From Candidatus Sulfomarinibacteraceae bacterium (GTDB taxonomy: Bacteria; Acidobacteriota; Thermoanaerobaculia; Thermoanaerobaculales; Sulfomarinibacteraceae): a DNA stretch of 64,000 bases. The position numbers were made by a program, and so were the translations under genes. Positions 13 to 59,782 of this stretch are shown piece after piece (the stretch's first letter is position 1; every line of letters begins with the position of its first letter). The notes under the pieces are model-generated. The model had not been told where the DNA came from. It did not search any database and saw nothing but the letters and a program-made list of their open reading frames with translations. Location: assembly GCA_963796455.1 (NCBI GenBank), contig CAWCLO010000004.1, positions 608,001 through 672,000 of the forward strand, written 5' to 3'.

Positions 13-1029
13 ATGTGGTGTATTCGAACTTACACTCCAGCGTACCATGGGGCACTTTTGAGGGTGCCCCCCGCCCATGCAACTCAGAGCGCGCGAAACC
101 GTACCTGGAGTGACGGGGGTTGTTTGCCGGTTCGCTCGAGTTCGGTAGGTGTTCTTGGATGCGGCCTGCTGGCGTTGTTGGTCGTGTCTGCATCCGGTTT
201 CGGGTGTGAGTCTTCGGCCAACAGCTGCGATGGGGTGATCGTATTCTCGTCGTCACACGAGGAAAATCCGGAGATCTACCTCATGCATGTGGACGGCTCA
301 GGGCTCATCCGTCTCACCGACAGGGATCTGAGGGACGGGTACCCGGCATGTTCGCCGGATGGTCAGAAGATCGCGTTCTACGCCTACGAGAATTCAACGA
401 CCCGGTCGATCAACGTGATGGACATCGACGGTGGGAATCGGACGCGGTTGACCCACGAAACGGGCGCCGGGGATGCTTCGCCCACATGGTCGCCCGATGG
501 ACGGTCAATAGCCTTTACCCGAAGGCAAAACGATGAGCTCGAACTCTGGGTGATGCATGCAGACGGCAACAACCAACAACCGCTCGGGGATCTCGACGGC
601 TTCGCCCCGCAGTGGTCCCCTGACGGATCTTTTCTTGCCTTTGCGACCTATCCTCGAGGGGACGTTTTCGTCGCCAATGCCGATGGGACCTCGCCTCGTA
701 ATTTGACCAATAACCAAATGGAAGACATGTGGCCCTCGTGGTCGCCGGACGGCTCGCAGATCATCTACATGTCCGGGGAACCGAAACACCACCAGATCTG
801 GGTGATGAATGCCGATGGTACCGGCTCCAGGCGGCTCACTTTCAATCAGTTTGATGACTGGCGACCGAAATGGTCACCGGACGGTTCGAAGATCATCTTC
901 AATTCGTTTCGGGACGACACCGTCGGTTTGTATCTGATGAAACCTGACGGATCCGGGGAGCGAAGCCTGACACCGTTCTCCGACCACGCGATGCAGGCGT
1001 CCTGGTGTCCTTCAGCAGAGTCCCGCTGA
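13..1029 (+). CDS. TolB-like PD40 beta-propeller protein, probably exported
   Basis: Repeated (P/W)SPDGxxIxF motifs; hydrophobic leader; true start probably downstream of nt 13. Confidence 0.85.
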   Translation: MWCIRTYTPAYHGALLRVPPAHATQSARNRTWSDGGCLPVRSSSVGVLGCGLLALLVVSASGFGCESSANSCDGVIVFSSSHEENPEIYLMHVDGSGLIRLTDRDLRDGYPACSPDGQKIAFYAYENSTTRSINVMDIDGGNRTRLTHETGAGDASPTWSPDGRSIAFTRRQNDELELWVMHADGNNQQPLGDLDGFAPQWSPDGSFLAFATYPRGDVFVANADGTSPRNLTNNQMEDMWPSWSPDGSQIIYMSGEPKHHQIWVMNADGTGSRRLTFNQFDDWRPKWSPDGSKIIFNSFRDDTVGLYLMKPDGSGERSLTPFSDHAMQASWCPSAESR

Positions 1030-1072
1030 AGCGACCGCGCCTATCGGGAGCATCCTCGGATCGACGACGCTC

Positions 1073-3286
1073 CTATCGCTCTCCAGGATGATATTGGGCT
1101 TCGGTGTGGTCTTCGAGTTGCTCCGGATAGAAGTACACGTCGCGGAGATCGCCGGTGCAGTAGCGTTCAATCTGATCGTCAAAATGGGGTGAGTTCACAT
1201 CACCGCTCAGACCCCCTGCCGTGACGGCTTTCGCGCTGATTCTGTCGCCGAATTCGACGACTGCCACGAAACTGTTGCCGCCGGTCCCGTACAGCTTTTT
1301 GGAGCCGTTGTAGCGACGGGCGCCGTAAGACGCCAATGATCCCCACCGCCCCGATGTAAAGCCTACTGCACGGCTTGGTTGCTCGTCGTCGAACGGGTGA
1401 ACGATATCCGCGGAGATCCTCTGAAACCGGTTGATCTCGCCCCACGGAGTCCTCCAACTCCCAAAATCCTGAACGAGCCGATCGGATGCCACTGCGAGCG
1501 CCTCGAGCTTTTCGGCGCCGGTTGTTCGAGTCACCATGTAGTCGTAGATGGAGTCACCGGCGTCCGGGGCCGCGTTTCTCACCCGTTCCATGAGTTCCGT
1601 TCCCCAGAAGACGGCGAGTGAGGTGGCGACCGACGACTCGGCCCAGCGAAGGTCCCACTCCCGAAGCACCTCGATCTGATCCGCCAACGCCGCCTTGTGT
1701 GGATCGGACGCCGGCGCGTTTTCGTGCGCGGTCAACAGTGACGGAATCAACGGCTCGAAGGCGGTGAGATAGCTGTCGTACGCCGCATCGATGAGCGAGT
1801 CGACTGTGAAATCCGTCGTGTTTTCCAGCACTCGAATCGCGTGGACGCCCCTGGGGTTTTCCAGACCGGTGTCCATGTACGACGGGAAGTCATCCCGTTT
1901 TGGAGAGTATTCTCCCGCCACCGAGTAGGGCCAGTTGTTGGTGTTCTGGATCCAGCCGTTTGCCGGGTTCAGGGAACCGACGGTTTCCTCGAGGGTGTGG
2001 ATGCCCTGCCATTCCGTTTCAGGATCGCGCCCGTCGACCGGACGGTTCCAATCGAAATCAGTGTCGCGCCTTGGCACGAAATTCGAGTGAAAGTAGGCGA
2101 TGTTGCCTTCTGAGTCGGCAAACACCGTGTTGTTCGATGAATTGGTGTGGAGCTCCATGGTCCGTGCGAACTCTTCGTAGTTCCGGGCCTTGGTGCGGAT
2201 GTATGACTGGTTGAGAGCCTTGAGGGGCTCTTCCATCAGCCGCACGCTGATCCACTTGCCGTCGCTTGCTCGGACGACGGGCCCATGGTGGGTTTCAAAG
2301 ACCGTGAACCCCCGCTGACCCATGCCGCCTTCGGTTGCGAAGGGCACCATGACGGATCTGGTGAGAACCGGCCGTTCTTCTTCGCCATAAATATAGAAGT
2401 AACTGCCGTCGCGCTCCACGATCGTCTCGGCGTATTCGTCGATGTTGTCCACGTCGCTCGAGGTGTGCATCCAGCCTGCGGTCTCGTTGAAACCCTGGTA
2501 GACGAAGAACTGTCCCCACGTCACGGCCCCGTAGGCGTTCAAGCCCTCGTCGCTGACCACGTGGACCTCGGCTCGAAAGTAGAACGACGTGTGGGGATTA
2601 ATGAGGAGCAGGGCGTTGCCGTTCTTCGTATTCGTGGGAGCGATGGCGAACCCGTTCGATCCCGTCGGTTCAGGAAGAAATCCGGGGTCGCCGCCGGCCT
2701 GGCCGGCCACGCCAAGATGAGCGGCAACCTTCGGCAGAGCCAAGCCGGCCTCTTCTACGCCGTAGAAGGCCTCGAGTTCGTCGAGCGAGACCCGCTCGAT
2801 GTCTCCACCGATCGAACCCTCACTGAAGGTCAGGGCCATCCACGGCTCGAAACGGGTGATGACTCGCGGAGTCACTTCGGGGTGTAGGTGGAGGTAGTAG
2901 TTCAGCCCGTCCGCCCACGCATCCATCAGGGCCCGGAGCCACTGCGGGCTCTCCTCGTACATCGCCTGGATCTCCTCCGGGACGATAAAGAGCTTCATCC
3001 GGAGATCCCGGTAGATCTCCTCCTCTCCTTCGGCCTCTGCCAGTCGCCCCTGGGAGTTCAGAAAATTGACCTCGATTCGGTTGAAATCGTCCTCGGCCTG
3101 GGCGTAGATCAGACCGAAAACGGCGTCGGCATCGGTCTTCCCGTGGATGTGGGGGATTCCCCAGTCGTCGCGGACGATCGTGACGTTCTGGGCCCGTCGT
3201 TCCCAGCGGGCGACCTCGTGGTCCACGGGCGCCTGTGTGCTGCATGAAAGTGAGGCAATAACGAAAACGAGTAGGAATCTCTTCAT
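1073..3286 (-). CDS. Penicillin acylase family Ntn-hydrolase (lipoprotein)
   Basis: RDDWGIPHI, AQAED, beta-chain start GSNGFAIAP; start MKRFLLV with GGAG RBS and lipobox LSC. Confidence 0.92.
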   Translation of the reverse strand: MKRFLLVFVIASLSCSTQAPVDHEVARWERRAQNVTIVRDDWGIPHIHGKTDADAVFGLIYAQAEDDFNRIEVNFLNSQGRLAEAEGEEEIYRDLRMKLFIVPEEIQAMYEESPQWLRALMDAWADGLNYYLHLHPEVTPRVITRFEPWMALTFSEGSIGGDIERVSLDELEAFYGVEEAGLALPKVAAHLGVAGQAGGDPGFLPEPTGSNGFAIAPTNTKNGNALLLINPHTSFYFRAEVHVVSDEGLNAYGAVTWGQFFVYQGFNETAGWMHTSSDVDNIDEYAETIVERDGSYFYIYGEEERPVLTRSVMVPFATEGGMGQRGFTVFETHHGPVVRASDGKWISVRLMEEPLKALNQSYIRTKARNYEEFARTMELHTNSSNNTVFADSEGNIAYFHSNFVPRRDTDFDWNRPVDGRDPETEWQGIHTLEETVGSLNPANGWIQNTNNWPYSVAGEYSPKRDDFPSYMDTGLENPRGVHAIRVLENTTDFTVDSLIDAAYDSYLTAFEPLIPSLLTAHENAPASDPHKAALADQIEVLREWDLRWAESSVATSLAVFWGTELMERVRNAAPDAGDSIYDYMVTRTTGAEKLEALAVASDRLVQDFGSWRTPWGEINRFQRISADIVHPFDDEQPSRAVGFTSGRWGSLASYGARRYNGSKKLYGTGGNSFVAVVEFGDRISAKAVTAGGLSGDVNSPHFDDQIERYCTGDLRDVYFYPEQLEDHTEAQYHPGER

Positions 3287-3392: not shown

Positions 3393-3571
3393 CATCGGTG
3401 CCCTGTTGACCGCCCGGTGACCGGGGCCGGGGTGCCAACAATGGTCTCTGCATCGCGATAACGTGGAATGAACGGCACTTATGATCCAGATTGAATTCGG
3501 ATCGGTGCCACATACCGTTTGAACCCACTGTGTCGTCGGAGTGGGATCGGCGGCTCCCTTGAGCACCTATG
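3393..3571. repeat. Cluster of GGGTGCCAC/GTGGCACCC-family sites
   Basis: CATCGGTGCC 3393, GGGTGCCAAC 3430, GGCAC 3474, GGTGCCAC 3504, GAGCACCTATG 3561. Confidence 0.7.
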
Positions 3572-3577
3572 GAACGT

Positions 3578-4060
3578 CTAAGACCCGACCTCGGTGACGC
3601 GCGCTGCCATCTCGGCCTTGAGGAAACGCTGATGATCGAGTTCTTCCTCGGCGAGTTCCTCGAGGATTTCGACGGCCTTGGCATCAGATATGTAGCCGAT
3701 GGCCTGGCGAAAGTAGGCCTCCGCGCGTTCCTCGGCGCCAAGGGCCAAACGATATGCCTGTTCGAGGGTAAATGATGGACCGACCTGATCGAAGTCCGGC
3801 ATTTCCACCTCCCACGGAGCGGCGTCCGTGTATCGAGAAGGACGATCCCCGAACAGCTCTCGCCGACGATCCTCGATCCGACTGTCGTGCTGGCCCTCGA
3901 GATAGGCCATTCGGTTGAAAAAATCCGCAGCATCGGGACTGTTGGATTCCGCCCAGGAAGCCAGCTGCTGGTATGTCTCCGCGGCCTCTTTTTCGAAGAA
4001 GCCCGCCAGATCCAGAACATCCATTGCATCGAGCTTGGAAAAATCGAATTGAATACCCAT
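3578..4060 (-). CDS. Rubrerythrin/ferritin-like diiron protein
   Basis: Two ExxA..Y / ExxH helix pairs (EGQH, ELDH). Confidence 0.85.
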   Translation of the reverse strand: MGIQFDFSKLDAMDVLDLAGFFEKEAAETYQQLASWAESNSPDAADFFNRMAYLEGQHDSRIEDRRRELFGDRPSRYTDAAPWEVEMPDFDQVGPSFTLEQAYRLALGAEERAEAYFRQAIGYISDAKAVEILEELAEEELDHQRFLKAEMAARVTEVGS

Positions 4061-4118
4061 TATGAACTCCTGTGGAGCACAACGCGCAAAGCCGTGTCAG
4101 TAATCCAACAGGTGCGAA

Positions 4119-4260
4119 AGGTGCCGCTGATCAAGATCTGACAAGGGACACGATCGCTTACAGGCGTTGTTGGGTTGTGAGGAAGGCCGCCCATGCCCAA
4201 ACGAATTTTTGTGGGCGACAAATGTGTAAATGTTTGCGTGCCACCCGTGTGGCACACATG
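4119..4260. repeat. Type A element (4119-4195) plus type C right arm with doubled core (4219-4260)
   Basis: GGTGCCGCTGATCA...GTTGTTGGGTTGTGA; both arms match 59687-59746. Confidence 0.75.
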
Positions 4261-7677: not shown

Positions 7678-7723
7678 GGGTGCCGCACATTCGATAGTCA
7701 GGGTGGCACCCGTGACACCCATC
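7678..7723. repeat. GGGTGCC...GGCACCC element with stuttered core
   Basis: GGGTGCCGC 7678; GGGTGGCACCC 7701; GTGACACCC 7712. Confidence 0.75.
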
Positions 7724-8974: not shown

Positions 8975-9030
8975 GGGTGCCACTTAGGGGGCGCACCCGT
9001 GGAGTGCTGTTCCTTCGATGTGTAGCACCC
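8975..9030. repeat. GGGTGCCAC...GTAGCACCC element
   Basis: Starts 16 nt after the cysK stop; internal GCGCACCC. Confidence 0.7.
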
Positions 9031-10043: not shown

Positions 10044-10970
10044 TCATGCCTCCCTGATGGTGGGAGGAGGATCCTCGATCCCGTAGACATGTGCGGGCCC
10101 CAGCGACCCGGGGAACCGTTCGCGGAGGACGGTTCGGGCTTTGTAACAGAGGTGGCAGGCATCCACATAGCTGTCCTCGTGCGGGAGGTCGAAGCGACGA
10201 ACCAGCTCCGCGGGGCCGCCTTCCACCAAGGCGCTGATGATGGGGTGGGTGTGGGGATCGTAGAGATCGAGCATTTCGCTCAGCGAGGAGTCCGTTTCCA
10301 GATTCCCGAGCAGGAGGCCTTGGCACAGATGAACGTTACCCCAACCGTCCACGTGAACCCGCCCGGGGTCGATGAAATCCTCGTCGGGACACTGGTCGAA
10401 CTCAGACCACGGCCGGCGCGGCAGATCGGCCGTGAGGTTGACCGCGGCGCGGCCGCGGAAACGCACCGAACCGCCGATGATGGGCAGGCCCTTCTCGTCG
10501 GGAGATTCACACACGGCTGGAGGATCAATCGTGATGACCACGTCGTCGAGCCCCAGTTCCTTGGCCGCCTCAACTGCATAACCCGGCCTCGGGTCTTCAA
10601 TATCTCCCGCGTGAAAGGTGTCGGATGAGACGCTGAGGTTTCCGACCTCGAGCTCGCCAAATGGTTTGAGCCAGAGGGCGGCATCCGGTTTCGCCGTGGC
10701 CCAGTAGCAGTTGCTCACCACACCGGTGGAAAAACCGCGTTCTCTGGCCAGCCGGATTCCTTCCAGCAGCAGTGGGTAGAAGAGAAAGGGCTCTCCGCCC
10801 TCGAAGTAGATGTTGTCGATGGTGCCCAGTTCTGCGGCCTGATCGAGCACGTCGGTCATGGTCTCGAGAGAGATGGTGCCGCCGGCACGGGGGCTCGACC
10901 AAACAAAACAGTGATCGCACTCATGGGTGCATTGATAGCTGAGCAGGAAGTGGATTCCGGTCAAGGGCAT
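10044..10970 (-). CDS. Radical SAM protein
   Basis: CTHECDHC, FEGGEPFL, C-terminal Cys motifs including CHLC. Confidence 0.92.
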   Translation of the reverse strand: MPLTGIHFLLSYQCTHECDHCFVWSSPRAGGTISLETMTDVLDQAAELGTIDNIYFEGGEPFLFYPLLLEGIRLARERGFSTGVVSNCYWATAKPDAALWLKPFGELEVGNLSVSSDTFHAGDIEDPRPGYAVEAAKELGLDDVVITIDPPAVCESPDEKGLPIIGGSVRFRGRAAVNLTADLPRRPWSEFDQCPDEDFIDPGRVHVDGWGNVHLCQGLLLGNLETDSSLSEMLDLYDPHTHPIISALVEGGPAELVRRFDLPHEDSYVDACHLCYKARTVLRERFPGSLGPAHVYGIEDPPPTIREA

Positions 10971-10997
10971 CGTCGCCTCCCGATCCCTGTCATACGG

Positions 10998-11746: not shown

Positions 11747-11756
11747 CGCTGCCTCC

Positions 11757-13943: not shown

Positions 13944-13987
13944 GGGAGCCATCAGGGTGCCACAAATCGCTTTTCCTCATTGTTGGC
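13944..13987. repeat. Doubled core plus type B left arm
   Basis: GGGAGCCATCAGGGTGCCACAAATCGCTTTTCCTCATTGTTGGC. Confidence 0.75.
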
Positions 13988-18118: not shown

Positions 18119-18179
18119 GGGTGCCCCATTTGGAGTCACGTGGGACTTGGGCGCCTTATGGTGGCGCCCATGCACCGAT
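18119..18179. repeat. GGGTGCCCC...GTGGCGCCC element
   Basis: Cores at 18119 and 18161, internal GGGCGCC, trailing ATGCACCGAT. Confidence 0.65.
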
Positions 18180-18235
18180 TGTATTTGTTAATCTGTGTCG
18201 CGGTTCGACCCAAATCCAAATTGCATAGGTGAAAC

Positions 18236-18781
18236 ATGCTGACCAAATATGCTCTTGCCGTGGCCCTGATATTCGGTGTGCCTCTTTTCTGTACCGCGCA
18301 GGAAACACCAGCTCCGATGCCGATTGAATTGGAGGTGTTGAAGGCGTCCATCGGAGTTTGGGACGCTGAAATCGAAGTCTGGCCGGCCGGACCGGATTCG
18401 TCCCCGATCACCTTCAACGGCGTGGAAACGAATCGACCGTACGGCGAGCACTGGATCGCATCCGACTTCGATTTCGAAAATATGGGGCAGACCATGAGAA
18501 TCCATTCCATTGTCGGGTACGACCTGGACAAAAAGAAATTGGTCGGCACGATCATTGACCATGGCCCCTACGCGGCGACAATGATCGGAGATTACGATGT
18601 CGAGTCAAAGACCGTCCATTGGATTACGGAAGCCAAGGATTTGGATGGAAAACCAATGGTACAGAAGACAATGGTTACCCAGAAAAGCGCCAACGAACGT
18701 GTGCTCGTTTTGGTGGTGCCTGGCGAAGAGCGCGACGATTTCAAGAAATTCATGCAGATCAGATTCGTGAAGCGGAAATGA
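18236..18781 (+). CDS. DUF1579-like secreted protein
   Basis: Signal peptide; IGVWDAE...G.ETN...GYD..KKK..GT.ID. Confidence 0.75.
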   Translation: MLTKYALAVALIFGVPLFCTAQETPAPMPIELEVLKASIGVWDAEIEVWPAGPDSSPITFNGVETNRPYGEHWIASDFDFENMGQTMRIHSIVGYDLDKKKLVGTIIDHGPYAATMIGDYDVESKTVHWITEAKDLDGKPMVQKTMVTQKSANERVLVLVVPGEERDDFKKFMQIRFVKRK

Positions 18782-18785
18782 CCTC

Positions 18786-18865
18786 CATCGGTGCCGGTCA
18801 CAAGACCTCAGAATTTTTGTTCCAGGGGCACCCTTGACCGTCAGTGATTGCGAACGGGGCCACCC
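18786..18865. repeat. Element with A-like left arm and B-like right arm
   Basis: CATCGGTGCCGGTCACAAGACCTCAGA; GGGGCACCC 18825; GTGATTGCGAACGGGGCCACCC. Confidence 0.7.
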
Positions 18866-19320: not shown

Positions 19321-19463
19321 GGGTGCCATTGATAACAACCTCACATCGAGAAGGCCGTCAGAGCGTCAGGTTATTAGGTAGTAATCAGTGGCACCCACAC
19401 GAACTGAGATTTCGATCAGGGGCGATGACCCAGGCTGTGAAGTTGTGATCAATGGCACCGATG
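19321..19463. repeat. Complete type A element (19321-19396) plus extra right arm (19436-19463)
   Basis: GGGTGCCATTGATAACAACCTCACA...TTAGGTAGTAATCAGTGGCACCC; TGTGAAGTTGTGATCAATGGCACCGATG. Confidence 0.85.
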
Positions 19464-19555
19464 CCCCCGCAAAACTCACGTCGTTCATTGTGGTTGTTCG
19501 TGCCTGGGCATCGTATTGACTACCATGAGGAGGGACTCATCCTCTGGAGGTCGCG

Positions 19556-20638
19556 TTGTCGAAATCGATCGTTGTCACGGCATTCCTCGTGGTGTTGGCC
19601 GGCAGCGGCATCACGCAGGAGATCTACAGTGACGGCTTCGAAGCGGGGAATCGCCTCGACTGGTCGAATATCGTGGCGCCTTGTGAAATCCCCACTGGCG
19701 CAGGCCTGGAGGATGTTTCAACTCCCACCACGGTCGTTGGCAGCGGAACGCCGGCGAGTTGTACCTCCGCAGCATTTGTCAGCGCCGTGGCCCTTGGTGG
19801 AATCATCACCTTCGATTGCGGTCCCGACCCGGTAACCATCACGCTCGACCAGACGGCCAGGGTTTTTAATGACACGGGACCAGAAATCGTCATCGACGGC
19901 GGAGGGTTGATCACGCTCAGTGGGGGAGGCATCCGGCGCATCCTTTATATGAACACCTGCGACGAGGACCTCGTGTGGACCACACCGCATTGCCAAAACC
20001 AGGACCACCCAGAGCTCACTGTACAGAACCTGACTTTCATCAACGCCAACTCCAAAAACGAGCCCGTGTACGACGGAGGAGGAGCCATATGGGCTCGCGG
20101 AGGCCGCTTCAAGATCGTCAATTGCAGCTTCTTTGACAATGTCTGCGAAGACGTCGGGCCTGATCTCGGTGGGGCAGCCGTCCGCGTCTTCAGTCAGTAC
20201 GAAGGACTGCCGGTCTATGTCGTCAACTCGCATTTCGGTGCGGCGCAGGGGTCCGGAAACACGTGTTCGAATGGGGGAGGGATCAGCAGCATCGGAGTTT
20301 CATGGACCGTCCTTAACAGCACGTTTTCCCGCAATCGTGCGATCGGTAATGGCGGGAATCCCTCCCAGTCGGGTACCCCGGGGGGCGGAAGCGGCGGCGC
20401 AATCTACAACGACGGCAACACGATGACGCTCTCCATTTGCGGTACGCGCATCGAGTACAACGAAGTCAACGCGCATGGAAGTGCCATCTTCTTCGTCAGC
20501 AACGACCACTCGGGCGACATCGTCATCGATCGTTCGGTCATCACCAACAACATCGGTGGTTCGTGGTATCCCACCTATCCTCAAATATCCAACCACTCCG
20601 ACACGCCGATTGAGGTGAAGGCCTCGATTATTCGATAG
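19556..20638 (+). CDS. Secreted beta-helix-like protein with GGAI repeats and N-terminal DGFE motif
   Basis: Signal peptide; IYSDGFEAG...W; GGGAIW, GGAIYN; GGAGG RBS. Confidence 0.8.
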   Translation: MSKSIVVTAFLVVLAGSGITQEIYSDGFEAGNRLDWSNIVAPCEIPTGAGLEDVSTPTTVVGSGTPASCTSAAFVSAVALGGIITFDCGPDPVTITLDQTARVFNDTGPEIVIDGGGLITLSGGGIRRILYMNTCDEDLVWTTPHCQNQDHPELTVQNLTFINANSKNEPVYDGGGAIWARGGRFKIVNCSFFDNVCEDVGPDLGGAAVRVFSQYEGLPVYVVNSHFGAAQGSGNTCSNGGGISSIGVSWTVLNSTFSRNRAIGNGGNPSQSGTPGGGSGGAIYNDGNTMTLSICGTRIEYNEVNAHGSAIFFVSNDHSGDIVIDRSVITNNIGGSWYPTYPQISNHSDTPIEVKASIIR

Positions 20639-20831
20639 GTCGTTTCACACAGCCACATCAGGCGATGCCAAGGCGTCAATTGATACGTGGTATCCCTGAT
20701 CCAAACAGACGATTGCCGAGTGGTGAACGTGGGGTTCTCATGGATGCCCTGTGCGTTGCAACCGCGCTCCGAAATCCCCGTATTCAAATGCAGAACGCGG
20801 AGAGCCCAATCGAACCCGGAGGTAGCGCAAG

Positions 20832-21651
20832 GTGTCTCGCACGATTGCCGCACTCGTTCTCCTTTTGGCCTTCACTTCCGTCGCCCCGGCGCAGGAAAAC
20901 GAAGAAAAACGTACCACTCGCCGCACGCAAGGTCAAGCTCGAAGAGCGAGCACAGAAGGCCTACGAGCAGATTGTCGCGGCGCAGACCGAACCCCTGGCT
21001 ACGACGGCCGAGGAAGTGGTCGACCGCTGTATCGCGTCGATGGGCGGTCGTGATGCACTGGTTTCTCTGCGAACCCTTTCCATGACTTCGACCGGTTTCA
21101 TGGTGGGGGGCAGATTCGGCGGCACGCGCCAGTTGAAGGCGCCCAACCTCATTCGGCAGGAACGGAATGAGGGACTCTTCGTCGTAACAGACGGCATAAC
21201 GGCCTGGCAGGTAGAGGGCGATGATTGGCAAGCTTTGCCGCCCGGTCAGTCGATGTGGCAACAAGTGTTCAGCATCACTCTCGATCTGATCGACTACAAG
21301 GCAAAGAACGTGGCCTATGATTTTGTCGAAACCGCGGCCCTCGAAGGAGGGGCGTTCTACAAGCTTCGCAAGACCATCAGCACCGGCAAGGAGATCTTCG
21401 TCTATTTCGACATCGCCACCGGTCTGCTCACGATGGAAGAGGAATTCGGAGAGAACGGCCGGATGGTCAACCTCTTCTATGATCACCGAGAGGTCGGTGG
21501 CGTGCTGCTGCCGCACATGAGAGTCCGCCTTGCCGAGGTCCTCGACACGGCCCACGTGGCCCTGCTCTCGTACGAGGCCAACCCGCCGCTCGACGACACC
21601 CTTTTCGAGCCCCAGATTGTGGCAGAATCAGACGAGACGTCGATTCAGTAG
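20832..21651 (+). pseudogene. Secreted hypothetical protein (LolA-like fold suspected), frameshift in A5 run 20905-20909
   Basis: Signal peptide MSRTIAALVLLLAF joins the long frame (TAEEVVDRCIASMGG; YDHREVGGVLLPH) if one A is removed. Confidence 0.7.
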
Positions 21652-22435: not shown

Positions 22436-22504
22436 CACAATTCAACAAATGTGAACGTTGCACCCATACATGCATGGCACCCATGTGCAGGAAGGGCGGC
22501 ACCC
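22436..22504. repeat. Type C right arm followed by two more cores
   Basis: CACAATTCAACAAATGTGAACGTTGCACCCAT; GGCACCC 22476; GGGCGGCACCC 22494. Confidence 0.8.
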
Positions 22505-23963: not shown

Positions 23964-24026
23964 GGGTGCCATCAGGGTGCCACCCATCATTCTCACAATT
24001 CAACAATTCGGTACGCGGCTCCTATG
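23964..24026. repeat. Doubled left core plus type C right arm
   Basis: GGGTGCCATCAGGGTGCCACCCAT...CACAATTCAACAATTCGGTACGCGGCTCCTATG. Confidence 0.8.
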
Positions 24027-28667: not shown

Positions 28668-28730
28668 GGGTGCCATCCATGCAGCCGCACTCACAAAGGC
28701 AGGATTGAGTGACTGCGGAGGCTGGCACCA
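28668..28730. repeat. Complete type B element
   Basis: GGGTGCCATCCATG...GATTGAGTGACTGCGGAGGCTGGCACCA. Confidence 0.8.
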
Positions 28731-28835
28731 TATTTTTTATCCGGCCGCCGCGGTGGTGCCCGCGGCGAAGAACGCCGCGAGCAAAGCCACCCCGATTGCC
28801 GGCGATCGCGTGAGCGACAGAGGCCTGCTCAGACC

Positions 28836-29579
28836 CTACGAGTCGAGCCAGTTCACCTGGCCGGTGGCCAGGTCGTAAACGCCGCCGACCACGAGAAGCT
28901 CGCCGTTGTCGACCAACTCGGAGATCACCTCGCTGGAATCGAGCAAGTTGGCGATGGTCTCGCGCACGTTTTCCTCGATGGCCAAATTGAGGAAAGCCGC
29001 GTTCGACGAGTTGGCCTCGCCCTCGGTCGCTGCGTCAGCTCTCGCAATGGGGGCGTCGAAGTCGTTCAGCAGTTCAGTGAGGTTGCCGAGTTCGACACCG
29101 TCTGCGGCTCCTTTGATGGCTCCGCACGAGCTGTGGCCAAGAATCAGAATGACCTTGGAGCCGGCGACCTTGGTAGCGAACTCGAAGCTGCCGACCATGT
29201 TGACGTCCTCGACATTGCCGGCCACGCGACCGACGAAGACGTCGCCGATACCCTGGTCGAAGATGATCTCCACTGGGACCCTGGAGTCGACGCAGCTCAG
29301 GATGGTCGCCTTTGGAAACTGCCCGCCGGCGGCGGTTGCTTCGGCCTGAGCCATGTAATCACGCGGTGTCAGCAGACCCGCCGAGAAGCGCTCATTGCCC
29401 GCCTTGAGATCGGCGAGGACCTGCTGTGGAGTCATGGCCTGCTGGGCGGCAGCCGTGAGGACGTCGTGCACGAGCTCGGGTCCTGGTGGAATTTCGGCTA
29501 CCGGCGCCGGTGGGGGAGCGCACCCGACGCTGGCGAGAGCGGCCGCGGCAGCAAGAGCAATCAATAGAGGAGTCTTCAT
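28836..29579 (-). CDS. Beta-class carbonic anhydrase (lipoprotein)
   Basis: LSCVDSRV, RVAGN, LGHSSCGA; lipobox VGC. Confidence 0.92.
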   Translation of the reverse strand: MKTPLLIALAAAAALASVGCAPPPAPVAEIPPGPELVHDVLTAAAQQAMTPQQVLADLKAGNERFSAGLLTPRDYMAQAEATAAGGQFPKATILSCVDSRVPVEIIFDQGIGDVFVGRVAGNVEDVNMVGSFEFATKVAGSKVILILGHSSCGAIKGAADGVELGNLTELLNDFDAPIARADAATEGEANSSNAAFLNLAIEENVRETIANLLDSSEVISELVDNGELLVVGGVYDLATGQVNWLDS

Positions 29580-29720
29580 GTTTGGTTCCTTTCGGTTGGT
29601 CCGTCACCACGTTCGAATCGGCGGTCGAGGCGCGGAAGGTACTCGATATTCTCAGTTGGCCGAACTCCTGCGAAACGCAACAATATTCCTGATCTTCCAT
29701 AGACATGCTGAATTCCAACG

Positions 29721-29758
29721 GGGTGCAACAGAGAGGTTGCCTTTGCTGAGTGGCACCT
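29721..29758. repeat. Short element GGGTGCAAC...GTGGCACCT
   Basis: Directly beyond the katG terminator. Confidence 0.6.
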
Positions 29759-29765
29759 GGGGTGG

Positions 29766-29798
29766 AAAAAAACGGCGGCGTTTTGAACGCCGCCGTTT
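29766..29798 (-). terminator. Rho-independent terminator of katG
   Basis: 13-bp stem AAACGGCGGCGTT/AACGCCGCCGTTT ending in a U7 run on the minus strand. Confidence 0.85.
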
Positions 29799-29850
29799 GT
29801 CTGTCCGCGTCATGAATATTCGCGTGGCAGAGAGCTCATTCGACCATCTG

Positions 29851-32127
<2,277 letters not shown>

Positions 32128-32321
32128 TCAAAAAGTCTGTAATCGTTCATCGTCTCAACCGACACTTCTATTCCAACCAGGGAACGCCGACGAATTCTTC
32201 CATTTCTTATTCCGGAGGACGGCACCCAATGAGTTTTCATACTTTTGAAATATTCGAGCCCCTTTCATGAGTTAGCCGACCATCGATAACAAATCCGCCT
32301 GATGGCGGAGAGGAGTCCAAG

Positions 32322-32846
32322 ATGAGAAAGTTTGTGTTTGTTCTGGCGACGATTGTTCTAATGTCCGCAGCCCCGCTGTTTGCGCATTGTGGTTCCTGCG
32401 GAACAGGTGAGGCACACGACCATGTCGCTGAAGCTGCTTCTGCCGATATCGTCGGTGTGGCTTCCTCGGCCGGCACCTTCAACACCCTGCTCGCGGCGGC
32501 CAAGGCAGCGGGTCTGGTGGACACGTTGCAGTCCGCCGGTCCATTCACCGTCTTCGCGCCCACCGATGAGGCATTTGCCAAGTTGCCCGAAGGCATGATT
32601 GAAAGCCTGCTCGCCGACCCGGAAAAGCTCAAGCAGGTATTGCTCTACCACGTTGTTTCCGGCACGGTGCTGGCCAGCGACGTGGTCGGCCTGTCGAGCG
32701 CCACGACCGTTCAGGGTTCTGACATCGCCATCGCCGTCTCGGGCGGCACCGTGATGATCAACAACGCCACAGTGGTAAAAACTGACGTGATGGCTTCCAA
32801 CGGCGTGATTCACGTCATCGACACGGTCATCGTGCCCTCCGCCTGA
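32322..32846 (+). CDS. Fasciclin domain protein
   Basis: [29 protein letters not shown]. Confidence 0.93.
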
Positions 32847-32868
32847 CTTTGAATTTCGAGTGAGATGG

Positions 32869-32897
32869 ACGGTCCGCGCGATGCGGGCCGTTTTTTT
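32869..32897 (+). terminator. Rho-independent terminator
   Basis: ACGGTCCGC/GCGGGCCGT stem with T7. Confidence 0.75.
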
Positions 32898-32950
32898 GTC
32901 TGGTGCAGGATCCAGTACCCTGACCGGGCATTATACTGGCGGGAGTTTCT

Positions 32951-33934
32951 ATGGAAAACTCGAAGGTCGTGGTCGTCGGAGCCGGTCTCTCGGGGCTGAC
33001 GTGTGCGCGGGAGCTGGCCGATGGCGGCCTCGATGTTCGGGTTTTTGACAAGGCGCGGGGTGCGGGTGGACGCATGGCGACCCGTCGAGCCGGCGACCTG
33101 TGTTTCGACCACGGAGCCCAGTACTTCACCGTCCGGGATGACCGGTTCGAGAAGACGGTCGATGCATGGTGTCGACAGGGGATTGTCGAGCCGTGGACAG
33201 GCAGGATAGCCGTCGTCGAAAACGGTGCCGTGTCCGAGAAAATCAGCCGCATCCCTCGGTTGGTCGGCGTGCCGGGCATGAACGCTGTTTGCCGGCACCT
33301 CGCTCGCGATCTCGATGTGTCGTACGGCACCAGAATCGAGGTTCTGAACCGGGAGGCCGACGAGTGGGTGCTGGCAGACCAGAACGGTGTCGAACTGGGG
33401 TCGTTCGACGCCGTAGTGGTGTCCGCTCCGGCACCCCAGACTGGCGCCCTCTTCCGCACCTGCTCGCCCGATCTCGCCGCCCATGCGGCATCGGTCGAGA
33501 TGTCGCCGTGCTGGGCGGCGATGATGACCTTTCCGGAAAGCTTGAATCTGGGCTTCGACGGTGCCTTCGTGAACAACTCCGCCATCACCTGGGTGGCTCG
33601 GGACGCCTCGAAGCCTGGGCGCCCGGATCACGAGGCCTGGGTGATCCACGCCTCGCAGGAGTGGTCGACCGCTCATCTGGAGCTGGAGCCCGGCCGTGCG
33701 GCCGAGGTCCTACTTCGCGAGTTCCGCGCTGCGCTGGGCCTGGAGAACAGGGATCCGAATCACCTGACCGCCCACCGGTGGAGGTTCGCGCTGCCACTCA
33801 ATCCTCTTCCTGAGACCTGTCTTTTTGATGCGAAGCTTCGATTGGCGGCGTGCGGCGATTGGTGCGGCGGACCGCGGGTCGAGGGCGCCTTCCTGTCGGG
33901 GCTCGCCGCCGCCGAAGGGATTCTCGGGCGCTAA
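32951..33934 (+). CDS. Renalase-like FAD-dependent oxidoreductase
   Basis: GAGLSG, GGRMATRR, FDHGAQYF, HRWRFA, GDWC.G.RVEGAFLSG. Confidence 0.9.
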   Translation: MENSKVVVVGAGLSGLTCARELADGGLDVRVFDKARGAGGRMATRRAGDLCFDHGAQYFTVRDDRFEKTVDAWCRQGIVEPWTGRIAVVENGAVSEKISRIPRLVGVPGMNAVCRHLARDLDVSYGTRIEVLNREADEWVLADQNGVELGSFDAVVVSAPAPQTGALFRTCSPDLAAHAASVEMSPCWAAMMTFPESLNLGFDGAFVNNSAITWVARDASKPGRPDHEAWVIHASQEWSTAHLELEPGRAAEVLLREFRAALGLENRDPNHLTAHRWRFALPLNPLPETCLFDAKLRLAACGDWCGGPRVEGAFLSGLAAAEGILGR

Positions 33935-34095
33935 GCTGGGGTGCCACCCATGAAGGGCGGACGACCGCATTGTCGAGGTGCACCCGGAGGTCTGCCTTCT
34001 TGACGCCGCGCCATTCCAACAATTCGTTCCGTGGCACCGGTCCTCAGCCCCGCTCATCGATCAGCAAGTGTGAAAGTGTGTGCGTGGCACCCATA
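33935..34095. repeat. Cluster: left core, internal core, two type C right arms
   Basis: GCTGGGGTGCCACCCATGAAG 33935; GGTGCACCC 33977; GTGGCACCG 34031; GTGGCACCC 34084. Confidence 0.85.
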
Positions 34096-35584: not shown

Positions 35585-35716
35585 GCTGTCTGCCAGGCTT
35601 TCGGATTTTCGGAAGTTCGAGCGAGAATCAAGACCAAACAAATCCCCAGGTTCCTGAAGCCTGGCAGCGAAATTTTTGAAATTCGAATCCACGCGAACCA
35701 CGGCGGGCTTGGAGGC

Positions 35717-41405: not shown

Positions 41406-41477
41406 GGCGCCCCCTTGCTCGCATCCTCATAAAGCAACAATGAGTCATTGCGAAGGATGGCACCCATCGCACCCATC
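41406..41477. repeat. Type B element with stuttered right core
   Basis: GGCGCCCCC...AGCAACAATGAGTCATTGCGAAGGATGGCACCCATCGCACCCATC. Confidence 0.8.
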
Positions 41478-41728: not shown

Positions 41729-41804
41729 GGGTGCCGCGTAATTCAACGTGACATGAGGTGGGACCAAATCGATTCACAAAGTCAACAGGTGATGCGTGGC
41801 GCCT
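41729..41804. repeat. 76-bp element with type C right arm
   Basis: GGGTGCCGCG...CACAAAGTCAACAGGTGATGCGTGGCGCCT. Confidence 0.75.
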
Positions 41805-45948: not shown

Positions 45949-45971
45949 AGGCGCCCCCTTTTGCTTCACCA

Positions 45972-46056
45972 GAGTGCCACAATTCGCATTGCCTCGGTGG
46001 CCTTTGTATATCGCTGAGAAAGCAACAATGCGTAAATGCTGAGGGTGGCACCCATG
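45972..46056. repeat. Complete type B element (82 bp core to core)
   Basis: GAGTGCCACAATTCGCATTGCCTC...AGCAACAATGCGTAAATGCTGAGGGTGGCACCCATG. Confidence 0.85.
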
Positions 46057-48753: not shown

Positions 48754-48927
48754 GAACAGACGACTATCAACGCTAATCTAGAAAACCCGAGCAAACGTCA
48801 AAGTGGTCGCGGTTTGGTCTTGCTTGGGTCTCTCGATGACTACGAAGCGCTTGCCGTTGCCGAGAGATCCTTCGAGCAGCCGGAGACGTCGGCGTGGGGC
48901 GCTTCCAACGGCCGCTATGGCAACCTC

Positions 48928-50331
48928 TCACCCGATGGACGGAATCGGCATCACCTGTTTGTTCTTTCGGCTGACTTCCGCCTGAAAGCCCATGATGTGG
49001 CTCTCGACAGAGGCGTCGATGGTGGAGGTCAGAACGGTCGGATCTTGGGTTTTGACGGCCCTGACCCAATCCGTCACCAGGGCCCAGTCGCCACCGCCGT
49101 GGCCGCTGGATTTGTAGTTCTCCACATCCTCCACGGTGATATCCCACGTGGTCGCCTTGCCGGTCAAAAAGTCCGTCAGGACAAAGTGCTCCATATCACC
49201 CACGATGTCTCCCTTGGATCCCATGACTCGGGTTCTCCGACCGTGGTAGGAGGTCAAGGCCTCCATGGAAAAGCTGGCGGTGATGCCGTCTCCAAACTCC
49301 ATTGCGGTGACGTAATGATCCGGCTGGTCATTGTCCATCCGATACACGCAGCGTCCGTAGTTCGTGCTTTTCAACTTATTCAGGATGTACTCACCATGGA
49401 CGGCCTCGTCGTCCGGCATGTCGAATACATAAATCCATTTCCGGTCGCGGTGGTAAATCTTCAATGCCGAGTAGGGACACTGTTCCTCAACGGCACAACC
49501 ATCTGTGCACCGGGGGGTGCTCCCCTCCGGGGCGTTGGCTCGCTTGAACCACCTGAGATCTCCGAAGGCTGAGATGTTCTTGCACGGTTCGCCGATCATC
49601 CACCTGAGGATATCCAGATCGTGGCACGACTTGCCCAGAATGATCGGGGTGGATTCCCGAGAGTTGTGCCAGTTGCCCCGCACATACGAGTGGGCCATAT
49701 GAACATGCCCAATCGGTTCGAGATGCTGGATGCTGACCAGCTCACCTATTGACCCCGATTGGATCACTTTCCTCAACTCGATGAAGTAGGGCGCATAACG
49801 CAACACGTGACAGACCGCCACGATTCGGTCGGTTTTTTTCGCCAGCGCCAAAATGTCCAAACACTCCTGTGCCGTCGGGGAGATGGGCTTTTCGAGCAGG
49901 ACGTCATATCCCATAGCAAGAGCTTGCATGCATGGACCGTAGTGGAGGTGATCGGGCGTGCTGATGATCACTGCATCAGCAAATTTGGGTTGATCGAAGA
50001 CATGCTCCCAGGTCACAAAGCGCTGTTCGCTGGGGATACCGTGCTTCGTTGCGTAACTCTCGTTACGACCGGGTATCGGCTCGGCGACTCCGACGATCTT
50101 GAGTTCATTCGGAAACTCGACCCCGTAGTTTCCATAAACATTGCCACGAGCGCCGGCACCGAGGGTGATGGCGGTTACTGGTTCCTGAACTTCGAGATTA
50201 CCAAGAGGGGCTGCGTGAACCCGCTTGTGACTCCCAAGACTCGCCATCGTCAGAGGCCCGGCGAGGAGTGATCCTTTGCCGATCGCCGCCATTTTCTTCA
50301 TCACGTCCCGACGGTTGAGTTTCTTTGGCAT
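48928..50331 (-). CDS. Gfo/Idh/MocA oxidoreductase with Tat signal
   Basis: NRRDVMK; GAGARG; LLEKP; HSYVRGNW; KSCHDLD; HGGGD. Confidence 0.9.
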   Translation of the reverse strand: MPKKLNRRDVMKKMAAIGKGSLLAGPLTMASLGSHKRVHAAPLGNLEVQEPVTAITLGAGARGNVYGNYGVEFPNELKIVGVAEPIPGRNESYATKHGIPSEQRFVTWEHVFDQPKFADAVIISTPDHLHYGPCMQALAMGYDVLLEKPISPTAQECLDILALAKKTDRIVAVCHVLRYAPYFIELRKVIQSGSIGELVSIQHLEPIGHVHMAHSYVRGNWHNSRESTPIILGKSCHDLDILRWMIGEPCKNISAFGDLRWFKRANAPEGSTPRCTDGCAVEEQCPYSALKIYHRDRKWIYVFDMPDDEAVHGEYILNKLKSTNYGRCVYRMDNDQPDHYVTAMEFGDGITASFSMEALTSYHGRRTRVMGSKGDIVGDMEHFVLTDFLTGKATTWDITVEDVENYKSSGHGGGDWALVTDWVRAVKTQDPTVLTSTIDASVESHIMGFQAEVSRKNKQVMPIPSIG

Positions 50332-50404
50332 GACTCTCCCTCACGTTTTCGTTGATACCGATGTCAGCTTACAGGTCCCACCCTCCGACAGGACCGTTCT
50401 GCTG

Positions 50405-50484
50405 TGGTGCTACCTATCACAATTGCGGGGTTGGCGTTGACATACACGAATCACAAAGCCACAAAGTGAAACGTGGCACCCATG
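50405..50484. repeat. Complete type C element (~77 bp)
   Basis: GGTGCTACCTATCACAATTGC...CACAAAGCCACAAAGTGAAACGTGGCACCCATG. Confidence 0.8.
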
Positions 50485-50565
50485 CCGGTTCCGGTTCCCT
50501 TGATCCTGTAGCGTCGGTGAACAACTTCTGCTACCGTCGCTACAGAAACCGACTGGAGAATTTAC

Positions 50566-52359
50566 ATGCGATTCGTTTTTCTGTTCCTGTTGTTTCAGGC
50601 GGGGACCGTTTTCGGCGGGAGCGGCAACCAAATTTTTGTCAACGGATTCGACTGTCGCGCCACCCGGCCCTGGTCGCAGACCGTGGGGGCGACTCCGGGG
50701 CCGACCCCGGCTCCGGCTCCGGCCGGCCAACCGGCCCTGCAGTGCGAGTGGGCGGGCCCTCCTGCCGGGGATCCCTTCCCGAATCATTTTCAGGCGCTCA
50801 GCATGGCGATGGTCGCGGACCTTCCATACCCAAGCTCTGCCAACGTGGAGATCGTTTTTGTAGCCTACAACGCTCTCGACGGCAGTGTTGACGCCTTTCG
50901 CGGGGACAATCCCCTGAACTTCGGGGTCCTGAGAGTGCTCGATGGCTGCACATGTGAACAGATAGCGACCATCCACGACGCGAGCAACCCGATCATCGGC
51001 GCTACCAGCCCGGCTCTGGGGGATATCGACGGCGACGGAACCGTGGAGATCGTTGCTCTGCGTGCCGGAGGCGGTCTGGTCACTTTTTCCTGGGATGCCG
51101 TACAAGATGACTACGTCACCTGGTGGCGGGCGGACGCAAATGACACCGAGCTGGAGACCAAGTGGCGTTGGGACAGCCCATCCCTGCACGACCTGGACGA
51201 CGACGGCATCGCCGAGGTCATCTCGGGGCACGAGGTTTTTGACGGGCTTCTTGGCACTCGGCTGAACCCCACCGACGTGTTCCCGCAGTCCACTCCTCTT
51301 GTATCGACCCTCGCTGTGGTCGACCTCGATGGCGACGACAGGGTGGATCTGGTCGGGGACAGCCTTTACTACTGGGAAACTGACAGGTGGTGGGTGTTGG
51401 CGGACGGACCGTACGGTCTGGGGCACAGCGCGGTCGCCGATTTCGGAACCGCGACCTTGAACAGCTTCGATCCGACCACGCGTGACGGCATTGCTGAGGT
51501 TGTGACCGGCCACACGGCCAGCAAAGATGTCGAACTCCGTGACATTTGGGGAAACTCTCTGATGAGCGTCTGGGCGGGCCCCGTATTCTCCCACAGCGCA
51601 CCAGCCGTCGCCGACTTTGACGGTGACGGCTTCCCAGAGATCGCGGTTGCTAACGCCAGCCTCCTCAGGGTTCTCGATCTCGACTGTGCCACTGCTGGTG
51701 GTGGTTGCTACGGTGGTTTTGTCAGGTGGAATGCGTTCATACTCCACACTCATTCTTACGGCACGACACCTACCGCCTTCGACCTTGAAGGGGACGGCGG
51801 CGTCGAGTTAATTTATGCCGACCAGTGTTTCGGCCGTCTCTACAACGGCTTGTCGGGCGCCGTCATCGCGTCCTGGCCGCGCGCCTCGTGCAACTCCGGT
51901 GAGGGAATCAGCATCGCAGACGTCGACGGTGATGGTTCGGCGGAGTTCGTGGTGACGTCGAACGATACCTGCAATGGAGTCTCGTGTCCGGACATCGATA
52001 ACCGGCATCAGGGTCTTCGTTGTGCCATCAACTCGGAATGCATCTCGGATGTTTGTGATTCCGGATTTTGCCGTTGTTCGAACACGCCGGAGTGTCCGGT
52101 ATTGCACGAGTGCGCACCACCCCTGGTCGGCACGCCGGGCAGCGGTTCGGTGTGCCGCGCGAGCCAGATCCGCGTCACTCCGTTTCGCGGTCTCCGCGTC
52201 TTCGGTGATCCGAGCGAAGGTTGGAGCCCCGCGCGACCAATCTGGAACCAGAACACCTATTCGGTGACCAACGTGAACGCGGACGGCAGCATCCCAAAAA
52301 CCACCGACAGGCTGGACAACCACGCGACAAACGGTCCCAACAGCTTTCGTACGCCTTAG
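50566..52359 (+). CDS. Secreted FG-GAP/VCBS repeat protein
   Basis: Signal peptide; many DxDGDG..E repeats; WNQNTYSVTNV; IFVNGFD...W. Confidence 0.85.
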   Translation: MRFVFLFLLFQAGTVFGGSGNQIFVNGFDCRATRPWSQTVGATPGPTPAPAPAGQPALQCEWAGPPAGDPFPNHFQALSMAMVADLPYPSSANVEIVFVAYNALDGSVDAFRGDNPLNFGVLRVLDGCTCEQIATIHDASNPIIGATSPALGDIDGDGTVEIVALRAGGGLVTFSWDAVQDDYVTWWRADANDTELETKWRWDSPSLHDLDDDGIAEVISGHEVFDGLLGTRLNPTDVFPQSTPLVSTLAVVDLDGDDRVDLVGDSLYYWETDRWWVLADGPYGLGHSAVADFGTATLNSFDPTTRDGIAEVVTGHTASKDVELRDIWGNSLMSVWAGPVFSHSAPAVADFDGDGFPEIAVANASLLRVLDLDCATAGGGCYGGFVRWNAFILHTHSYGTTPTAFDLEGDGGVELIYADQCFGRLYNGLSGAVIASWPRASCNSGEGISIADVDGDGSAEFVVTSNDTCNGVSCPDIDNRHQGLRCAINSECISDVCDSGFCRCSNTPECPVLHECAPPLVGTPGSGSVCRASQIRVTPFRGLRVFGDPSEGWSPARPIWNQNTYSVTNVNADGSIPKTTDRLDNHATNGPNSFRTP

Positions 52360-52371
52360 GGTCTAGCACCA

Positions 52372-52508
52372 GAGATCCACGTTCACAATTGCGCAGCTGT
52401 CAGTCACCGCGGGAGCTGGCTGTATCGCTGGGGTGCCAGGTTGTGCGTTGCACTGGTGCGGCACGACGCAGTTGTGAGGTTGTGATCAATGGCACCCATG
52501 TGGCACCC
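52372..52508. repeat. Type C left arm, left core and type A right arm with doubled core
   Basis: CCACGTTCACAATTGCGCAG 52377; GGGTGCCA 52431; GTTGTGAGGTTGTGATCAATGGCACCCATGTGGCACCC. Confidence 0.85.
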
Positions 52509-53475: not shown

Positions 53476-53596
53476 GGGGCCACTCTGAAAGCATACCGGA
53501 TGGGTGCCACCCATGAAGGGCGCCACAGTTCGCTGGGGTGCCACCCATGAAGATTGAGTGATTGCAAAGGGTGGCGCCCATGGAAGGGTGGCACCC
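53476..53596. repeat. Densest cluster: six cores in 121 bp
   Basis: GGGGCCAC 53476, GGGTGCCACCC 53502 and 53536, GGGCGCCAC 53518, GGGTGGCGCCC 53569, GGGTGGCACCC 53586. Confidence 0.9.
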
Positions 53597-56169: not shown

Positions 56170-56283
56170 CTCTTTTTCCCCCTTGCGGCAACAAGCCGAA
56201 CATCACCGGGTTTGAGTTCCTGGCACGACGATTCTAACGGTTCTCGAAAGAGGACCCATGAATGTACGAACCCTCAATACTCT

Positions 56284-56314
56284 CAATTGTGTAATTGTGA
56301 ACGCGGCACCGATG
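56284..56314. repeat. Type C right arm
   Basis: CAATTGTGTAATTGTGAACGCGGCACCGATG. Confidence 0.75.
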
Positions 56315-57288: not shown

Positions 57289-57408
57289 GGGTGCCACTGA
57301 AAGGGTGCCGGGTTCCGCATTGTTGCATTGTGAGTGGGTGCTCCAGAGGGTGGCACGTTTACGACGGCAGAAAGCAACATTGAGGCAATGCTAAGTGTGG
57401 CACTCATG
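57289..57408. repeat. Cluster of five cores with type B arms
   Basis: GGGTGCCAC 57289, GGGTGCCGG 57303, GGGTGCTCC 57336, GGGTGGCACG 57348, AGCAACATTGAGGCAATGCTAAGTGTGGCACTCATG 57373. Confidence 0.85.
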
Positions 57409-59612: not shown

Positions 59613-59684
59613 CCTTTCAAGGGTATCAGCGTGTGTGAGGGGTGCGAACGATACCGGGAGCGCTGACTCATGGGGAGTTCGTTT

Positions 59685-59782
59685 TTGTGCCGCTGATCAC
59701 AACCTCAGATGCTGATTGGTGTTGTTGGGATGTGATCAGTGGCACCAAAACGAGCCCTGAAGACGCCCGTTGGGTGGCACAC
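59685..59782. repeat. Complete type A element plus trailing core; last site of the array
   Basis: GTGCCGCTGATCACAACCTCAGA...GTTGTTGGGATGTGATCAGTGGCACC; GGGTGGCACAC 59772. Confidence 0.85.

Follow-up and report, generated by a model that had tools for sequence, protein, structure and literature searches.

What are the short repeats that separate unrelated genes along one stretch of a Candidatus Sulfomarinibacteraceae genome, and which enzyme acts on them? The stretch, referred to as the window herein, comprises 64,000 nt (positions 608,001 to 672,000 of contig CAWCLO010000004.1, or C4, in assembly GCA_963796455.1). A first-pass annotation had described it as a ~60-kb array of gene modules punctuated by GGGTGCC and GGCACCC heptamers and had proposed a non-integron system in which these are insertion sites for modules in either orientation, with the enzyme encoded outside the window. 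Judged by their sequence, the repeats are the terminal inverted repeats (TIRs, ~28 nt) of TIRtrons, with cores GGTGCCAC or GGTGCCAG. The ends of this known but little-studied single-strand jumping gene are piled up, mostly one way, between accessory genes that have been reshuffled and exchanged among species, which points to a form of gene stacking unlike that of integrons.

All 36 heptamers listed earlier were exact (GGGTGCC, n = 20; GGCACCC, n = 16), and 35 of the 36 were intergenic under the gene mask of this analysis. When the 9,480 nt of window spacer (56% GC) were resampled 200 times with a first-order Markov model, we obtained a mean of 2.1 heptamers and a maximum of 9, which bears out the reported excess. 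Likewise, the 8-nt core GGTGCCAC/GTGGCACC was found 19 times in window spacer where 0.46 copies were expected. Over the whole genome, the heptamer was not over-represented (1,261 observed, 1,264 expected), and the excess in the window is therefore local. Intergenic near-matches were concentrated at C4:600-700 kb (96), at both ends of C6 and at the end of C7, with 0-5 per 20 kb elsewhere. Core density was 1.06/kb in array spacers and 0.037/kb elsewhere, a ratio that is somewhat inflated because the array limits were set from the motif itself. The first-pass annotation had suggested testing whether such sites cluster in accessory islands; they are confined to four regions. The array outgrows the window, running from ~C4:600 kb to ~693 kb (~93 kb) and ending shortly before 2-oxoglutarate dehydrogenase genes; the description as an array of unrelated modules held up. 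The part of the array within the window, 49..59782, consists in our open reading frame (ORF) and core scans of unrelated 1-6-gene modules split by TIRtron ends. The products of the 60 window ORFs scanned are enzymes, transporters and repeat proteins without relation to one another; none is a recombinase or transposase. An Rfam scan of the window gave no match. No tRNA was found in the window or near the C4 array, and a tRNA-anchored island was therefore dropped as an interpretation. Other short intergenic repeats are abundant in this genome, for example AGAGGAGCA (518 copies, 51 expected), and are unrelated to the TIRs.

In relatives, the 11-mer ATGGGTGCCAC was clustered at 10 to 79 copies in 14 of 24 congeners, as compared with 0-4 copies of a reversed control. 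The exact 12-mer was not enriched in 300 other Acidobacteriota genomes (maximum of 6; one genome had 11, scattered), so that arrays carrying this core look confined to the family Sulfomarinibacteraceae; the unpublished genomes G123 and G148 support no conclusion here. An even spread of sites among syntenic genes was not seen: within the 39.8 kb of window searched, none of the 24 congeners shared more than 2.4 kb in one piece. The adjoining core block gave a single 5.4-kb match in 14 of the 24 at 74-77% identity, and core genes are ~75% identical within the genus. Genes to the right of the C4 array keep their synteny in relatives that have their known arrays at other places.

Inside the congener clusters sit Y1 transposase genes framed by ATGGGTGCCAC-type sequence, which is the arrangement of transposase and matching arms that had been proposed as a check. 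A pair of ~28-nt TIRs starting with GGTGCCAC or GGTGCCAG frames the Y1 gene at 31 of 35 transposase loci; in a second, overlapping set of 73 fetched loci, TIRs framed 58 of the 65 examined after 8 partial loci had been excluded. Intact elements carry a gene of ~325 codons and mostly measure 1.07-1.1 kb in total. Each end comprises an 8-nt core (GGTGCCAC or GGTGCCAG, the last base also being G for GGTGCCAC) and a ~20-nt element-specific arm. The 20 nt behind the cores sort into arm families, and the "variable middles" ascribed to these repeats are not borne out. Nor does GGGTGCC always come first where a spacer holds both heptamers, as had been claimed: the spacer before 41817 has GGCACCC (41459) ahead of GGGTGCC (41729). 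Sixteen window ends match the arm of an intact TIR at 16 or more of 20 positions, the best at 20/20. At this threshold, the arms matched at 27 of the 1,085 cores in array spacers, at 6 of the 14,669 in other spacers and at 2 of the 83,503 in coding DNA outside arrays. Folding of single-stranded DNA (ssDNA) reached z <= -3 for 5 of 12 element strands, which implies that a conserved attC-like hairpin is not general. The TIRtron/TIRYT class was named by Di Nocera et al. in 2013 (PMC3733652), and the GGTGCCAS core fits 6 of 8 positions of a published motif, GGGGWSAS, that occurs in only some TIRtron TIRs according to the available text of that paper. The accessible part of Quentin et al. 2018 (10.1101/279083) equates the class with TnpA-Y1 subclass 2.1, subgroup 2.1.2, and ranks subclass 2.1 second in size among the groups of these HUH proteins.

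Which enzyme, then, acts on these ends? Among transposase family members, a Y1_Tnp domain was found in 5/5 and Bac_DnaA_C in 2/5 (best E 7e-4), and both of the two members compared with the NCBIfam REP-associated tyrosine transposase scored above cut-off. Profile searches matched the TnpA-REP structure 4ER8 and DnaA (E 6.5e-5). The HxH motif (H60, H62) is invariant in 25/25 sequences, and Y119, conserved in at least 90% of the 25, aligns with Y115, the catalytic tyrosine of 4ER8. On these matches, the transposase is a Y1/HUH-fold protein with a DnaA-like C-terminal helix-turn-helix. Its gene family is present in 49 of 60 other family genomes, and its best database matches are titled Thermoanaerobaculia and Ca. 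Sulfomarinibacteraceae. This TIRtron transposase, encoded outside the window, is the likely enzyme for the window sites. The source assembly has three transposase copies, all with other arms and 38% identical to the clade of the window's main arm types. The copy at C8:151 kb belongs to the GGTGCCAG-GCTTTAG arm family, the same as a decayed mini-element in the window (35589..35668), and no closer gene was found. The earlier proposal stands as far as accessory joints, genes running both ways and an enzyme outside the window are concerned, although the sites are TIRtron TIRs and not a new family. At G000:C4:1143-1147 kb (L013, L014), two 98%-identical TIRtrons lie 2 kb apart and frame one gene, and one of them carries a tandem duplicate of its own 3' end plus a core-only stub.

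It is very improbable that the sites instead serve as targets for XerC/XerD, an integron integrase or the Y2 transposase of an IS91-like element, or that a regulator binds them. The genome does encode proteins resembling XerC and XerD, a C-terminal fragment of an IntI-like protein, and IS91-like elements in three copies, of which two lie near a site cluster, yet the sites match the Y1-framing TIRs arm by arm, the IS91-like copies have unrelated ends of their own, and the sites occur at convergent junctions and in stacks. Xer, IntI and IS91 were rejected as the enzyme on the arm identity and, for IS91, on its different ends; IS110 was also ruled out, and resolvase families had 0 matches in the source genome. 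A likeness to sigma-54 promoters or shufflon sfx sites was dropped on the TIR match, without a formal test. The three near-identical IS91-like copies lie at G000:C7:280-287 kb and C6:37 kb (L011, L022), share their ends and in two cases show frame or deletion damage. The C-terminal fragment of an integron-integrase-like gene lies beside small ORFs at G000:C4:878 kb (L003).

The ends are arranged with a marked polarity. Of those preceded by ATG (ATG-ends), 17 in the window face left and 1 faces right. Over 22 stretches of relatives' arrays, which were picked for many ATG-ends and in some cases after the polarity was visible, the ratio was 360:36, and the genes there ran 337:344. In intact GGTGCCAC-clade elements, ATG lies outside the left end in 8/18 and outside the right end in 1/18. 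A same-direction core was present 6-60 nt upstream of 192 of 394 ATG-ends, as compared with 937 of 5,855 control ATGs; stacked same-direction ends form runs of up to eight, with newer ends just inside older ones. When truncated ends were compared with intact ones, identity extended to position -5 (27/43) and fell to chance level from -4 (11/43), a comparison that required a match up to -7, so that only the -5/-4 step is informative. Extra DNA at the joints measured 3-8 nt in 34 of 46 cases, with a mode of 4 and CATG as the most frequent sequence, and the break point followed no base rule. From the identity drop at -4 and the ~4 extra nt, we infer that the incoming strand starts ~4 nt outside the core and is joined loosely inside the resident end. 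The 5' flanks of ends were CATG/GATG and others, with no GTAG among the 14 commonest. Among 10 arrays with a flank GC skew, 7 had their ATG-ends on the C-rich strand (7 to 3), a split not decisive for a polarity set by replication, such as the lagging-strand template imposes on IS200/IS605 elements.

Do genes move with these ends? Three neighbouring window modules (28.7-33.9 kb) recur within 12 kb of the G006 array, reordered and reoriented. The carbonic anhydrase module, which lies between TIR ends (28742..29705, minus strand), has a 91% identical copy there in another order and orientation. For the catalase-peroxidase module (29766..32054, minus strand; 89% copy), homology begins directly after a TIR core with a different arm, and for the fasciclin and flavin oxidoreductase module (32220..33925, plus strand; 86% copy) it begins at a core; in two of the three, the core at which homology starts bears a different arm. 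Two adjacent one-gene modules on the plus strand, 19540..20642 (without a Pfam or NCBIfam family) and 20738..21633 (flanked in G006 by other TIR ends), occur in 7/76 and 2/76 other family genomes, never together. An FG-GAP repeat protein module (50503..52349, plus strand) has 77% copies in G001, G005 and G008. With one genome per species, we found 23 cross-species segments of 93-97% identity among relatives' arrays, three of which (94.7-96%) have a (C/G)ATG-core as their exact start and reach into genes before any right end. Lastly, a ~450-nt one-gene module was found in 11/77 family genomes from three genera and is 90-96% identical to the query outside the genome from which the query was taken. 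No two genomes share its neighbours, and it is TIR-bounded in different contexts: at the far end a core lies within 45 nt in 7/7 readable cases, and on the near side an end is close in 10/11 (by eye). Taken together, these observations support the view of the sites as seams where accessory modules meet, the same modules being found in different order and orientation in other species. TIR-headed modules shared across species (L024:3515-5824, L038:2903-5124) carry housekeeping-type genes (MiaA-like, FabH, LpxD). Three G001 contigs (C3, C11, C12; L044, L048, L049, L052) carry one array in rearranged copies of 97-99% identity, which reflect either variation between strains or repetition of the array.

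We then ask whether the Y1 enzyme itself makes the joints and carries passenger genes. From the sequence patterns described above, we consider this somewhat better than an even bet. The transposase would build the arrays by single-strand cut-and-join, cutting ~4 nt outside one end so that the incoming strand begins with (C/G)ATG-GGTGCCAC, and that end would be joined to a resident end at a position that is not strictly fixed, in most cases 10-45 nt inside it. Joining inside resident ends would make insertion self-targeting and polar, stack the stubs and delete or replace neighbouring DNA. DNA downstream of the end would travel along, such that end-plus-gene modules are gained, lost and reordered, and the modules would cross species by some other transfer route. 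There is precedent in TnpA-REP, whose cuts fall hundreds of bases away from the site it binds and show little specificity, and for which capture of flanking genes has been proposed (PMC3333891 and PMC8266576, accessible text).

Gene presence/absence breakpoints at the cores were a check proposed at the outset. Homology breakpoints coincided with core edges in 14 of 43 cases between genomes and in 15 of 49 within genomes, against 6.3 each for random spacer positions (~2.3-fold; 0/500 draws reached the observed counts). The enrichment is genuine, yet most breakpoints lie elsewhere.

Several results weigh against the Y1 enzyme as maker of the joints and carrier of genes. As many as 29/43 cross-genome and 34/49 within-genome breakpoints are away from cores, and a window gene has homologues in some genomes that lack an exact core in their vicinity. 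Window modules are 73-91% identical to those of relatives, that is, old. The 90.5%-complete source assembly yielded no transposase bearing the main arm types of the window, and our literature search found no experimental work on subclass 2.1. The selection of the 22 stretches bears on the polarity count. None of 21 candidates was a clean empty/filled element site. The one TIR-bounded indel among the 21, of 4.8 kb, lies between two direct ATG-ends with a 24-nt direct-repeat overlap, and homologous recombination could equally make it. Of the public sequencing runs, the best contained 25% of window words, and the four examined gave short, low-depth contigs. One contig of run X5 (depth 3.6) joins ~45671 to 52505, with a TIR core on the right side and none on the left, and is too thin to count; the remaining joints were TIR-only cross-matches.

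The off-core breakpoints (about two thirds), the coreless homologues and the indel between direct repeats also fit selfish nesting alone, in which TIRtrons and their mini-derivatives insert into each other in dispensable DNA while genes arrive and are shuffled by natural transformation, other insertion sequences or recombination between repeated ends, so that the ends would mark plastic DNA without being carriers of genes. The arrays also contain IS91-like, IS110 and DDE transposases as well as group II introns, and ATG-ends are few around the GGTGCCAG clade (0.033/kb vs 0.106/kb). We regard this as the main rival, possible if doubtful: it sits poorly with cross-species segments that open exactly at an (S)ATG end and carry on into genes before any right end, and with a one-gene module that is TIR-bounded in differing contexts across three genera when core genes differ as much as they do within one.

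If the Y1 enzyme does carry genes, how integron-like is the outcome? In G006:C20, density per 20 kb runs 20, 17, 8, 10, 8, 1, and in G006:C20, G021:C12 and G001:C3 it is highest at a contig end and declines from there, the ATG-ends pointing towards the sparser side. The window's own array has a flat density with no gradient, and the window would be an older, probably quiet array. Our tentative picture, to which we give a little less than even weight, is that subclass 2.1 Y1 transposases may drive an integron-like accumulation by HUH chemistry, in which the left TIR with its 4 extra bases would serve as a portable cassette head for single-stranded end-plus-gene modules that insert within resident ends, giving polar ~100-kb arrays that grow from one end and exchange genes across genera. 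A stricter version, a domesticated cassette system in which each ATG-end is a recombination site, ssDNA circles are excised between direct ends and these are re-inserted at a growing end, would account for the polar sites, the 11-nt empty units, the three gradients and the 4.8-kb module between direct ends. We think it improbable, since there is no fixed enzyme gene, attI-like site or conserved locus, flanking genes are syntenic where arrays lie elsewhere, joins fall at variable points inside older ends and not at one crossover, and the window's array lacks a gradient. In G006:C20, a ~790-nt group II intron (Rfam RF02005) sits ~10 nt inside a TIR in three places (L036:8322-9111, with further copies at 25914-26703 and 39437-40029), and a fourth Rfam match lies at L036:15180-15404. 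Group II introns that target attC sites are known and form a parallel to these introns inside TIRs.

The window itself contains only mini-elements, single ends and stubs. The mini-TIRtron at 19322..19395 has both ends in the TGATCAC arm family (each 16/20 to the left end of the L141 transposase gene; ssDNA fold z ~-4), and a mini-element at 59686-59746 (fold z ~-6.5), which together with two cores makes up 59686..59781, is of that family too. Other mini-elements are 28669..28729 (right arm 16/20 to the L071 left end), 41730..41803 (14/20 and 15/20 to the L137 ends; one run-X1 contig bridges the element and both flanks), and two with CATG outside the right-hand core, 45973..46052 (from ssDNA fold and arm scans) and 50406..50480 (arm 16/20). 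Single ends, all on the minus strand, lie at 19432..19459 (TGATCAC family, arm 18/20), 41437..41464 (ATG-flanked, 16/20) and 56283..56310 (16/20). Tandem or stacked ends lie at 13945..13983 (two tandem cores 11 nt apart plus an arm, plus strand, 14/20 to an intact TIR), 22437..22503 (three same-direction ends, minus strand, the innermost arm 19/20 to intact L037/L060/L127) and 23965..24022 (a left-facing end that matches intact L134 at 19/20, together with tandem cores). The densest stack, at 53476..53595, packs nine overlapping cores into 120 nt, and its arm at 53578 matches at 18/20. A mixed end cluster spans 33940..34091, where 34091 has ATG and a 17/20 arm, and the cluster at 57290..57404 includes an arm that agrees with the right end of intact L061 at every position (20/20). 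Decayed single ends or cores lie within 3431..4256 (3431, 3504, 4120, 4245 and 4256; arm at 4245, 16/20 to an intact TIR). The core/arm scan further gave a core cluster at 7679..7719 and cores at 8976..9029, both with arms short or absent, decayed paired cores either side of a DUF1579 gene (18120-18168 and 18832-18864, within 18120..18864), short paired cores at 29722..29757, and paired ends plus an 11-nt core-only stub at 52432..52507.

Elsewhere in the window, 10044-13882 has the fewest TIR ends and holds broken or fragmented genes (radical SAM, short ORFs, nitroreductase, methyltransferase). Oxidative-stress genes occur as separate modules within 28836-37433 (catalase-peroxidase, thioredoxin, peroxiredoxin, glutathione peroxidase). 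A defence-system scan of 12 unnamed window proteins gave one weak partial match only.

The element class is already published; on polar arrays of it or TIR-bounded modules we found no paper in a search that covered the main text of mostly openly accessible papers. The arrays give testable predictions for subclass 2.1, namely a cut ~4 nt outside the left end, joining inside a resident end, and cargo. If modules do move this way, bacteria would possess, alongside integrons, another means of accumulating accessory genes; tools built to find integrons would miss it, and it may explain assembly breaks at such regions in these genomes.

How does this compare with known systems? Chromosomal integrons are long polar arrays of unrelated accessory genes with 60-90-nt attC sites and modules shared between species. 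The arrays described here resemble them in length, site size and polarity, in cross-species modules and in group II introns inserted into sites. They differ in having GTGCCAC/GTGGCAC cores without RYYYAAC/GTTRRRY, genes in both orientations, modules that keep their own upstream regions, and imprecise joins. No full-length IntI was found beside the array, only XerC/XerD-like genes and the IntI-like fragment ~185 kb away in this incomplete assembly, and the initial view that this is not an integron is upheld. IS91/ISCR elements and Helitrons perform one-ended rolling-circle capture by an HUH enzyme; they share with our arrays the HUH enzyme, one defined end with a variable far end, and passenger DNA. 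They differ in that here the enzyme is Y1 and not Y2, the TIRs are symmetrical and the element's own ends are targeted; nor are the sites the oriIS/terIS of an IS91 element, as the genome's IS91-like copies share other ends. Their one-ended capture is named as a parallel in the available text of PMC3333891. As to a classical MITE moved by a DDE transposase, which would leave a target-site duplication, intact elements mostly have unlike sequences on their left and right sides, and the 21 candidates included no clean pair of empty and filled sites. As far as the accessible parts of PMC3333891, PMC8266576 and PMC5581495 go, REPtron/TnpA-REP systems with REP, BIME and REPIN sequences share the HUH fold with its one tyrosine, paired repeats that are non-autonomous, cutting of low specificity away from the bound site, and a proposed capture of flanking genes. 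In contrast to them, our system has no GTAG tag or short hairpin, its repeats are clustered and not genome-wide, and each genome has several enzyme genes (diverse, near-identical or truncated) with an extra C-terminal domain. The closest match is TIRtron/TIRYT itself, which, by the available text of PMC3733652 and 10.1101/279083, has a Y1 gene in long TIRs, a C-terminal DnaA-like helix-turn-helix, and free TIRs occurring singly, as dimers or in clusters. What sets the present case apart from that published text is the confinement of ends to ~100-kb accessory arrays, their polarity, the stacked stubs, the 4 extra nt at one end and the TIR-bounded modules.

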